Origin: Carcharhinus amblyrhynchos
Taxonomy: Eukaryota
Direction of reading: 5' to 3'
Length of the DNA stretch: 64,000 nucleotides
NCBI GenBank assembly: GCA_965287045.1
Contig: OZ336898.1
Coordinates: 26,598,001-26,662,000 of the forward strand
The notes under the pieces were generated by a model. It did no database searches, was not told where the DNA came from, and saw nothing but the letters and a program-made list of their open reading frames with translations. Positions 449-53,189 of this stretch are shown here, piece by piece. Each line of letters begins with the position of its first letter. Position 1 is the first letter of the stretch. The translations under genes were made by a program, and so were the position numbers.

Positions 449-1184
449 TGTGATGTATTCAGCCAGGCTCATGAGGTTGGCTTGCTAGAGTTTGAACTAC
501 CTGATGAGTCCTTAGCTGGCACACCCTTTTCAGTTTTCTGAAAAACCTTTCACTGATGTTTTGTTTGCACTTCAGTCCCATGCTCCTGATCTATGAGCAC
601 CAGGTGCGGAGAGGTGTGGGTCAGGAGGATGACCCCCTTGTGAACCTGCTCCTGGGCTTGGTGAGGCATGTCATCAACAGGTCCAGACAGCAGGCGATCG
701 ACGGGGTCATCCACCCTGACTGTCTGCCCCTCTACCGCGGCTGTATTCATGGCCAGGTGTCCCTGGAAAGGGAGCATGCAGTGTCCACAGGCGCAGTCCA
801 TGCCTTCTGCGCCCGCTGGGCACCGCAGGTGCTGGGGTATATTACTGACCTTGACAATCACCTTTTGACTTGATGTTTTAAGTTTCCTTTGTGATTTGAT
901 TTTTGGTTCAGGCTGTTCCCCTCCTTTTTGGGGAGCTGCCCCTTTTAATTTGTCCCTTAGTTAATTTGAGTTTGTTTTACTCATTTGGCACGTGAAAAGA
1001 ACTACCTGATGAGTCCAAATTGATAGTTAGATCAGGGAGCCTCACGCTCCCTATTTAAAGCAGGTGTGTCAGACTCCCAGCCTGGATTCAGCAGGGAGCA
1101 ACTGGAGACCTGGCTGTGTACAGATGTATGGTGTAAATAAAGTAACTTGGTGACAGGACTTGTCGCCTCCGTGGAGTTATTATA
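449..1184 (+). mobile_element. Small solo LTR (~230 bp without nested LINE)
   Basis: Starts TGTGATG, ends TTATTATA; 5-bp TSD CTCTC (444-448/1185-1189); TATTTAAA and AATAAA motifs; related copy at 18596-19150 ends TTATTACA. Confidence 0.7.
512..998 (+). mobile_element. Tx1-clade LINE, 5'-truncated (ORF2 C-terminus + T-rich 3' UTR)
   Basis: ORF 556-873 LVNLLLGL..RSRQ..DCLPLYRG..VSLEREHAVSTG..F.ARWAP; 18-bp TSD GAACTACCTGATGAGTCC at 494-511 and 999-1016; homologues at 18790 and 52562. Confidence 0.8.
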
Positions 1185-18487: not shown

Positions 18488-18646
18488 AAAGAAGTATTGC
18501 CACGTCAGATAAAGCACTTGCAAAAGATTTAAACCTATCTCAAAGAAATATCTCAAAGAATTTCGCATGAACTATTGAAGTGCAGCCATGACACTTGTGA
18601 TGACTTTAATCAGATTGACTTTAATGAGATTGGCTTGCTTGAGTAT

Positions 18647-18721
18647 GAATGAATAGCTCAGATGGCTAGAGTGTGGTGCTAATAATGCCAAAGTTGTGTG
18701 CTCAATCCCCTTACAGGCCCA
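18647..18721 (+). pseudogene. tRNA-Ile(AAT)-derived pseudogene/SINE head
   Basis: TAGCTCAGATGGCTAGAGTGTGGTGCTAATAATGCCAAAGTTGTGTGCTCAATCCCCTTACAGGCC matches vertebrate tRNA-Ile(AAT) with CpG decay; acceptor stem and B box broken. Confidence 0.8.
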
Positions 18722-18789
18722 CTGTGTTTATCTGGGTCTATGGCGTACTCTTGTTGTTTAGAGTGTGTTCAATAAACAAAAGAAAACCT

Positions 18790-18962
18790 TGCTTGACCGT
18801 CAACGCCTTCCATGCCTGTTAGGGACTGGGGTGTATCATTGACCCGTTTAAGCATGTTTTAAGTTTCCTTTCCACTTTTTTTTTTGTTCGAGGTGGTTCC
18901 TCTCCTTTAGGCAGCTGTCCCAAAGTGAATTTGATTTTGTTTATTTGGTGGATCACTAAAAG
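18790..18962 (+). mobile_element. Tx1-clade LINE extreme 3' end
   Basis: GTCAACGCCTTCC..CTGGGGTGTATCATTGACC..TTTTAAGTTTCCTTT..GCAGCTGTCCC aligns to 797-998 and 52730-52920. Confidence 0.75.
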
Positions 18963-19150
18963 ATGTCCCTGATTGAGAGCTCTAATTCATGGTCAATCAA
19001 GGAGCCCAATGTCTTGTATTTAAACAGGAGTGTCAGTCCCTCTGGGCTCCTGATGCAGATAGCACACTGTGAGACTCTGTATGTTATGGTGGGATCTTGT
19101 GAATAAAGGAACTCTGGTGATGGGAATTTCACCCCTGTGGACTTATTACA

Positions 19151-52561: not shown

Positions 52562-52920
52562 CACATCCTCCTCGTGAACCTACTCCTGGGCCTGGCAAAG
52601 CACGTTAATTACAGATCCAGGCAGCGGGCGATCGAGGGGGCTGTCTGTCCTGACTGTCTGCCCCTCTACCATGGCAACGTTCAAGGCCAAGTGTCTCTGG
52701 AGAGGGAGCATGTGGTGTCCACGGGTGCAGTTGACGCCTTGCACGCCCGTTGGGCACTGCAGGGGCTGGGGTGCATTATCAAACTAATAATCAGATTTTA
52801 ATTTGATGTTTTCAAGTTTCCTTTGTACTTTGATTTTGTTCGGGCTGTTCTCCCTCCTTTTGGGGAGCTGTCCCTTTTACTTTGCCTTATTTAACTAATT
52901 TATTTGGTTTGACCTTAAGA
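52562..52920 (+). mobile_element. Tx1-clade LINE 3' end
   Basis: ORF 52574-52801 NLLLGLAK..RSRQRAIEG..DCLPLY..VSLEREHVVSTG; 3' UTR matches 870-998. Confidence 0.82.
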
Positions 52921-53189
52921 GGCCAATTGAAACATCAGTGTTCTGTTTGTTACACAGCCACCAAGTGGGAATGAGATAGCCTGTGGGCAATGCTGGATAC
53001 ATAAATCAGGTTCAAAATACTGACTATCATGTATTCCAACTTGGGAAAGCAGTTTGTGGATTATTATTTGAAGAGTATAAATTCCTCAGTGTAGGGTTCC
53101 CATTGTTACCAGCACAAGATACTGACTTGGAGGAGGATATAACTGAACTGCCCTGGTTTCTATCATTCTAAGCTGCAACCAGACATTAA

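Follow-up and report, generated by a model that had tools for sequence, protein, structure and literature searches.

A solo LTR in a 64-kb window of shark DNA (the window being the whole stretch analyzed) is interrupted by the 3′ end of a Tx1-clade LINE, and a second, diverged LTR in the same window carries a Tx1 tail at the equivalent site. Does a Tx1 lineage select this LTR, and how could a LINE that inserts upstream of a promoter come to lie downstream of one? The following features bear on the answer.

444–448 (5′ copy) and 1185–1189 (3′ copy), + strand: CTCTC, host duplication of the window LTR
449–1184, + strand: solo LTR of subfamily A (LTR-A), Gypsy-type, interrupted by a LINE; ∼230 bp when empty
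494–511, + strand: target word GAACTACCTGATGAGTCC, 5′ copy, of which about the last 14 bp are truly duplicated
512–998, + strand: 5′-truncated Tx1-clade LINE insert of 487 bp, with a 3′UTR ending in AAAA
562–873: C-terminus of Tx1 ORF2 inside this insert, 38% identical to YTX2_XENLA (E 4e-9)
999–1016, + strand: target word GAACTACCTGATGAGTCC, 3′ copy; the first 3–4 bases are LINE-derived in other copies
1005–1036, + strand: inverted repeat, CCTGAT (1005–1010) and ATCAGG (1031–1036)
1052–1059, + strand: TATA-like box TATTTAAA of the LTR (putative function), 53 bp 3′ of the start of the target word
1079–1118, + strand: part of the LTR that corresponds to the head at the 5′ end of full-length LINEs, as in the head-only copies L149, L153 and L183
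1136–1141, + strand: AATAAA, likely the poly(A) signal of the LTR
18596–19150, + strand: solo LTR of subfamily B (LTR-B) with an insert at the equivalent site (copy 2)
18654–18719, + strand: piece derived from tRNA-Ile(AAT) with which the copy-2 insert begins, 83% identical to genomic tRNA-Ile genes
18854–18961, + strand: Tx1 3′UTR tail of copy 2, joined to the target word at 18962–18980
52562–52930, + strand: truncated Tx1 copy (control) of a sister family that does not target the LTR and has another tail

The LTR and its insertion site

The LTR at 449–1184 has TG...TA ends and reads TGTGATG...TTATTATA. The initial annotation described a ∼230-bp LTR with a CTCTC duplication that holds a Tx1 3′ end, and this is borne out by the flanks (444–448, 1185–1189) and the YTX2 match. 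The insert at 512–998 is 78–79% identical to the 3′ ends of two full-length copies, L131 and L146. In copy 2, the LTR-B is about 70% identical to LTR-A, and an intact 5′ copy of the target word is absent. Its Tx1 tail does join at the equivalent site, as annotated, but the site given for it is part LINE tail, part target; where LTR-B is empty, the site reads GAACTCCCTGATTGAGAGC. The inverted repeat reported beside the site is real in both LTRs, with 6-bp arms in LTR-A and 11-bp arms in LTR-B, the latter containing what we take to be a CCAAT-box-like word.

ARAGORN and Rfam searches of the window found no tRNA. The tRNA-Ile piece of copy 2 has 40 matches including itself; the 39 others cover essentially the tRNA part alone, and the sequence downstream of the piece is repeated in none of them, which rules out a tRNA-Ile SINE family. 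Judged from these matches, the piece and the Tx1 tail form a one-off chimera.

Two-LTR elements of the host (L061/L062, L064, L271 and L280) have paired TG...CA LTRs, ∼4 kb apart, with a primer-binding site and a polypurine tract, and host insertions show 5-bp duplications. Fragments in L064 match, in order, gag-asp_proteas (weakly, E 0.0075), RT_RNaseH_2 (E 2e-28) and rve (E 1e-5), with ∼730 bp between the integrase fragment and the 3′ LTR. By its paired LTRs and PR–RT/RH–IN order, the host is a Gypsy-type LTR retrotransposon.

For targeting, the LINE 3′ end alone (800–998), without LTR bases, served as query, and the best 30 of 44 matches were examined as loci. Among these best matches, 24 of the 29 LINE 3′ ends other than that of the window have this LTR or a variant of it at the junction, and 5 lie outside the LTR. 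The accessible part of Kojima 2015 (PMC4494074) calls a LINE target-specific when >20% of its flanks fall in one repeat, a threshold exceeded at 24/29. Relatives of the 52562-type sister family are never in the LTR (0/29), and another sister-family test placed 1 of 30 flanks there. First-look searches of the 2.9-Gb genome gave 1653 LTR-A and 637 LTR-B candidates, so tiny a part of it that targeting by chance is excluded. Site-specific targeting of the LTR by a Tx1 lineage is nearly certain.

The initial annotation's central proposal, that a shark Tx1 family parasitises an LTR family, is upheld by the 24 of 29 3′ ends in the LTR or a variant, and the random 3′ flanks that it named as a check were not found. 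It had added as a caveat the copy at 52562. That copy is indeed outside the LTR, but as a counter-example it is ruled out, being from the sister family with the other tail.

By eye, 17 of the 29 best-matching LTR-A loci are filled, 10 are empty and 2 are unclear; for LTR-B, 16 of 29 best matches are filled at the equivalent site, 12 are empty and 1 is truncated. This is the filled-versus-empty count that the initial annotation had called for, and its loci, like those of the LINE, were taken as the best BLAST hits and do not sample the genome at random. An exact-pattern junction search returned 102 filled and 33 empty sites (reversed-pattern controls, 0), a ratio that is only rough because the empty-site matches are strand-skewed (6 forward, 27 reverse; filled, 47 and 55). 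Roughly 60% of the sampled copies of one LTR family have been struck at one promoter site.

LINE insertions lie in sense orientation at a single site, ∼50 bp upstream of the TATA-like box. The palindrome was ruled out as a sufficient target: no antisense insertion occurs at its second arm, which is intact in 62/62 distinct copies (loose regular expression). Outside the LTR, the 3′ junctions of L055, L216 and L168 read (T)CCCT.ATTG; both L055 and L216 apparently lie in one other repeat, which may serve as a secondary target. At the LTR-B site, L252, L259 and L261 carry a second, AT-rich 3′ tail that is unlike the Tx1 3′UTR and ends in AAAAAGA, possibly from another family using the same target.

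The window insert had been assigned an 18-bp target-site duplication. The two copies of GAACTACCTGATGAGTCC are present, but the length does not stand. At empty sites, as in most 5′ copies, the sequence is GAAC, whereas 68 of 100 listed filled junctions read, by eye, GAGA, GAGG, GAAG, GAGC, GAAA or GAAT. The 5′ and 3′ copies of the target word agree at position 3 in 9/15 pairs and at position 4 in 1/15, as against 10–15 of 15 at positions 6–18, some of which were fixed by the regular expression. Copies of 7SL and tRNA-Glu join at position 5–6 of the word. The first 3–4 bases of the 3′ word thus come from the RNA, making the duplication ∼14 bp. In three off-target copies, the duplications are 16–18 bp long and contain TTCC or TACC close to their start. 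Because this word is too common for 83% occupancy of one site, some added specificity is needed, whether from a longer recognized sequence, from tethering to the promoter or from pairing by read-through RNA.

Independent insertions, cargo and stacks

Fragments start at widely varying 5′ positions (e.g. 9, 24, 43, 72, 125, 144, 195 and 215 on the BLAST query scale), inserts at the LTR site range from 9 bp to full length, and the tails of the inserted LINEs belong to several subfamilies. The two LTRs of one provirus are identical at integration; in three of the four two-LTR elements they are differently filled (L061/L062, L064, L271), and in L280 both are empty. Given the differing breakpoints, tails and cargo and the unequal LTR pairs, the insertions into the LTR are independent events. 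The initial annotation had read its own two cases as separate, and the single ancestral insertion that it named as a check does not account for the filled LTRs.

The same site also holds small-RNA sequences. A full-length 7SL RNA retrocopy (L011, 1672–1970, – strand; 169.8 bits) has a ∼14-bp duplication, and L040 has a tRNA by Rfam match. L253 has a tRNA-Glu-like piece whose trailer ends in a run of T, found by relaxed ARAGORN, whose other calls are mostly noise; a piece in L259 is presumably tRNA-Tyr-like. Some of the tRNA-derived pieces (L253, L259, L040 and 18654–18719 of the window) are joined to Tx1 tails. Such small RNAs (7SL, tRNAs) would likely have been brought to the LTR in trans or by template switching.

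Some loci contain stacks of LINE fragments. In L043, L048, L049 and L061, and nearly so in L053, the units of a stack are ∼80% identical and have different tails, with a common 5′ breakpoint. The 5′ LTR of L061 (2550–3501) holds four stacked Tx1 fragments of 185–188 bp with four different tails, all with a 5′ breakpoint equal within a base or two. In L057, L058 and L052, the breakpoints of the stacked units differ.

LTR stretches ahead of full-length copies

We searched for full-length copies with three 5′UTR queries, without LTR bases, and obtained 36 distinct loci. At 25 of these, a TATA-bearing part of the LTR (∼120 bp) stands upstream of the LINE; 2 have the head only, their LTR stretch beginning at about position 80, and 9 have neither, some of them being truncated or unrelated. 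The upstream stretch runs from about position 1 to 97–131 of the downstream LTR part (shorter or longer in a few loci). In full-length copies with the 3′ end present, the LTR restarts there at position 1–11, which rules out that insertion at a further site, near LTR position 120, gave rise to the upstream stretch. The TATA-like box begins 27 bp ahead of position 81, a spacing that would fit a start site, and transcription of the LTR is predicted to start near 1079–1087.

We compared each upstream stretch with the LTR copy on the 3′ side of its own LINE. In 4 of 11 pairs, the stretch is closer to the own 3′ copy than to any other of 60–61 LTRs over positions 19–86, the partner not ranking first in the other 7; over positions 87–118, this holds for none of 10. 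Rare variants at positions 19–80 are common to the two copies of a locus 15 times versus 4.9 expected (P = 0.0004, permutation, 13 pairs), with 6 of the 13 pairs having none. At positions 81–118, the corresponding figures are 8 and 2.8 (P = 0.009, permutation), so the head is not always purely RNA-derived. These pair tests leave out L275–L279, full-length candidates whose far 3′ ends were not found in the stretches examined. Single loci are informative too. Two tiny earlier insertions, private to L140, are repeated on both sides of its LINE, and private variants are common to the upstream stretch and the local copy in L146, L205 and L213. L140 and L146 also have matching 5-bp host duplications, indicating that both ends are from one LTR.

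This sharing of variants with the own 3′ copy shows that in several loci the upstream stretch is a copy of the local target, and so often a long target duplication, likely made during insertion; old or recombined copies may explain the pairs that lack local closeness. The duplicated stretch likely gives a new LINE copy a promoter, and is predicted to switch the copy on. Head-to-tail full-length copies, each behind a promoter-bearing LTR stretch, are seen at 13.495–13.505 Mb of contig C21 (L213/L173) and likewise at 34.265–34.275 Mb of C2 (L272/L198).

Head-only copies number only three. In the short form of L153, the target word is followed directly by the head from position 89, and the 3′ end, of sister-family type, lies outside the LTR. 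L149 and L183 start at position 80–84, in non-LTR flanks.

With a probability of roughly 60%, we favor sense insertion upstream of the TATA box, with a second copy of the core promoter arising as a ∼40-nt LTR head on the LINE RNA guides pairing downstream of the nick. The endonuclease would nick the LTR site, with a bottom-strand nick predicted 4–7 bases into the target word, and reverse transcription would be primed there by the target, with the last bases of the RNA (AAAAGARNT..CC) pairing to the primer strand and a ∼14-bp duplication. The RNA would begin at the start site of the LTR and carry ∼40 nt of LTR ahead of the LINE 5′UTR. The end of the cDNA would then anneal to its match in the top strand, a short way downstream of the nick, and the sequence between this point and the nick would be copied. 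The product would be a new copy behind a complete U3 and start site, with the core promoter of the LTR kept at the 3′ side, and the duplicated, putative promoter would drive transcription of the LINE. Such a homology-guided 5′ joint would also explain stacked fragments with one 5′ breakpoint.

The long duplication might instead arise after insertion, through unequal crossing-over or gene conversion between an LTR-derived head and an empty allele. This would leave the same sequence product, local variant sharing included, and some pairs do look recombined (L153, L217). We nonetheless think it unlikely: recombination would have only ∼30–40 bp of homology to work with, yet among the 5′UTR matches the long form is seen 25 times and the short form twice; the common breakpoints in stacks suggest that homology acts when the LINE integrates.

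A distant second-strand cut, ∼120 bp downstream in full-length insertions, would need no RNA head. It would suit the fairly narrow zone in which the duplication ends (∼97–131 in most loci), and the rotifer element R9, with what is said to be an exceptionally long target duplication, would be a precedent. But truncated copies have ∼14-bp duplications, the end point varies by subfamily, and the head-only copies L149, L153 and L183 exist, making such a cut improbable.

It is very improbable, in our estimate, that the whole 120-bp stretch was part of a LINE RNA transcribed from further upstream and thus a carried internal promoter. The 7 of 11 pairs without special closeness to the local copy would agree with this; the two locus-private insertions repeated in L140, and the private variants common to both copies in L146, L205 and L213, argue against it. 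Least credible by far is hitch-hiking, in which filled LTRs would go back to one ancestral insertion, or a few, multiplied with the LTR element or through segmental duplication. Beyond the general possibility, segmental duplicates do occur on contig C33, but of the sister clade, and the idea is already refuted for the bulk of loci by the many breakpoints and tails, the non-LINE cargo, the two LTR subfamilies and the unequal LTR pairs in three of four proviruses.

Sister families and known systems

The intact ORF2 of L131 (1304 aa, sister clade) has Exo_endo_phos and RVT_1 domains and is 49% identical to YTX2_XENLA over 99% of its length; partial protein matches to Heterodontus and Hemitrygon are at 65–69%. 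LTR-targeting L146 has RVT_1 and clusters with L131 in a DNA tree. By domain content and similarity, the LINE belongs to the Tx1 clade, with an APE endonuclease and reverse transcriptase and Tx1 as the closest named relative. L132 has a zf-CCHC match (E 0.0076) below the curated cut-off, and ORF1 is broken in the LTR-targeting copies seen.

The tree holds the 33 of 39 endonuclease-bearing loci with enough coverage. The sister clade (18 rows) is nested among LTR-flanked copies with 100/100 support, the root being a midpoint only. The 52562-type family ends in AAAAGAGGCCA, and its relatives have duplications of 12–16 bp starting with CCA (found in 5 of 10 tried). The endonuclease loop, tied to target choice in the accessible part of PMC1950540, is TFVKPGGG in three copies that target the LTR and TFVKPRCG in a fourth; most sister-clade copies have TYVRPGAG. 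A link between this difference and target choice is suggestive only. Natural material is offered by three closely related sister families that differ in target range, with three differences in the endonuclease loop.

In the young sister clade (L131, L133, L138, L139, L147, L150 and L161, mostly on contig C33), ORF2 is intact, and the 5′UTR is preceded by the beginning of an egg-coat gene of the zona pellucida (ZP) type (ZP-N), together with a TATA box. A 148-bp ZP unit is found on both sides of L139 and L147, and most of it in L138. Specificity of this clade (sister clade C) for ZP genes is not supported genome-wide: of its 30 top-matching 3′ ends, only 6 fall within ZP sequence, and a single duplicated contig accounts for 5 of the 6. 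So few ZP flanks suggest that the clade has switched to another source of promoter, not that it has gained another strict target. L161 is followed by an intronless ZP-N plus ZP-C frame. In L154, near 1090–1213 as oriented, what we take by eye to be a ferritin-like coding piece adjoins the ZP-derived head of a sister-clade copy.

We advance a broader reading more tentatively, at a little under even odds. The LINE would be a promoterless parasite of promoters. Its nick would fall upstream of the TATA box, a position at which truncated copies spare the core promoter, and a homology-guided ∼120-bp duplication would precede every full-length copy. The young sister clade would have swapped donors, leaving the LTR for the ZP TATA box and 5′ end, with the matching 148-bp duplication at some ZP loci.

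LTRs are not the undescribed target class that the initial annotation took them for. The crocodilian families Tx1-8_Crp and Tx1-4_AMi, of the Keno/Tx1-Mar group, insert into specific LTR retrotransposons according to the accessible part of Kojima 2015 (PMC4494074). By that description they resemble the shark LINE in clade and in having specific LTR targets, and the Keno/Tx1-Mar group shares with it tandem insertions and small-RNA-derived passengers (PMC4494074, accessible part). For the crocodilian families, the main text, so far as accessible, states neither the site nor how long the duplication is, mentions no duplicated promoter, and describes crocodilian heads as U1/U2-derived, whereas the head here would be target-derived (PMC4494074). 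The literature searched, mostly without subscription papers and Repbase Reports, yielded no account in which an RNA head taken from the target makes a long duplication that bears a promoter, nor, within the same limits, any of shark Tx1 elements in LTRs or of Tx1 with zona pellucida. The LTR target class is already known; the promoter-bearing long duplication is what we did not find described.

Tx1L of Xenopus laevis (YTX2_XENLA, P0006) is alike in having an APE endonuclease and reverse transcriptase and in inserting into another transposon. Its target, however, is the DNA transposon Tx1D, not an LTR, and its specificity loop, with an RDGH tip, is longer than the shark loop (PMC1950540, accessible part). 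Keno, a U2-specific Tx1 element, and Utopia likewise combine a precise 3′ junction in a multicopy target with variable 5′ junctions and tandem insertions, but their target is a host RNA gene rather than a transposon promoter (PMC4640811, accessible part).

R2 also uses the promoter of its target, being co-transcribed with rRNA, and target homology at the ends of its RNA aids integration; R2 and R9 have a restriction-like endonuclease and insert inside an already transcribed rDNA unit (PMC12203849, accessible part). The shark LINE, unlike both, nicks upstream of the TATA box and would gain a promoter only through the long duplication. R9, specific to rDNA, reportedly makes an exceptionally long duplication that resembles the long form here. 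Co-transcription and homology arms in R2 and the long duplication in R9 may thus be seen as precedents for parts of the proposed mechanism.

The transcription of target-specific Tx1 elements was left open in Kojima 2015, the accessible part of which proposes transcription from the flanking target (PMC4494074). The anatomy described here suggests a concrete, testable route, namely insertion upstream of a promoter, yet a position downstream of a promoter copy. Its long duplications and the common breakpoints in stacks also offer natural material on LINE 5′ joining.
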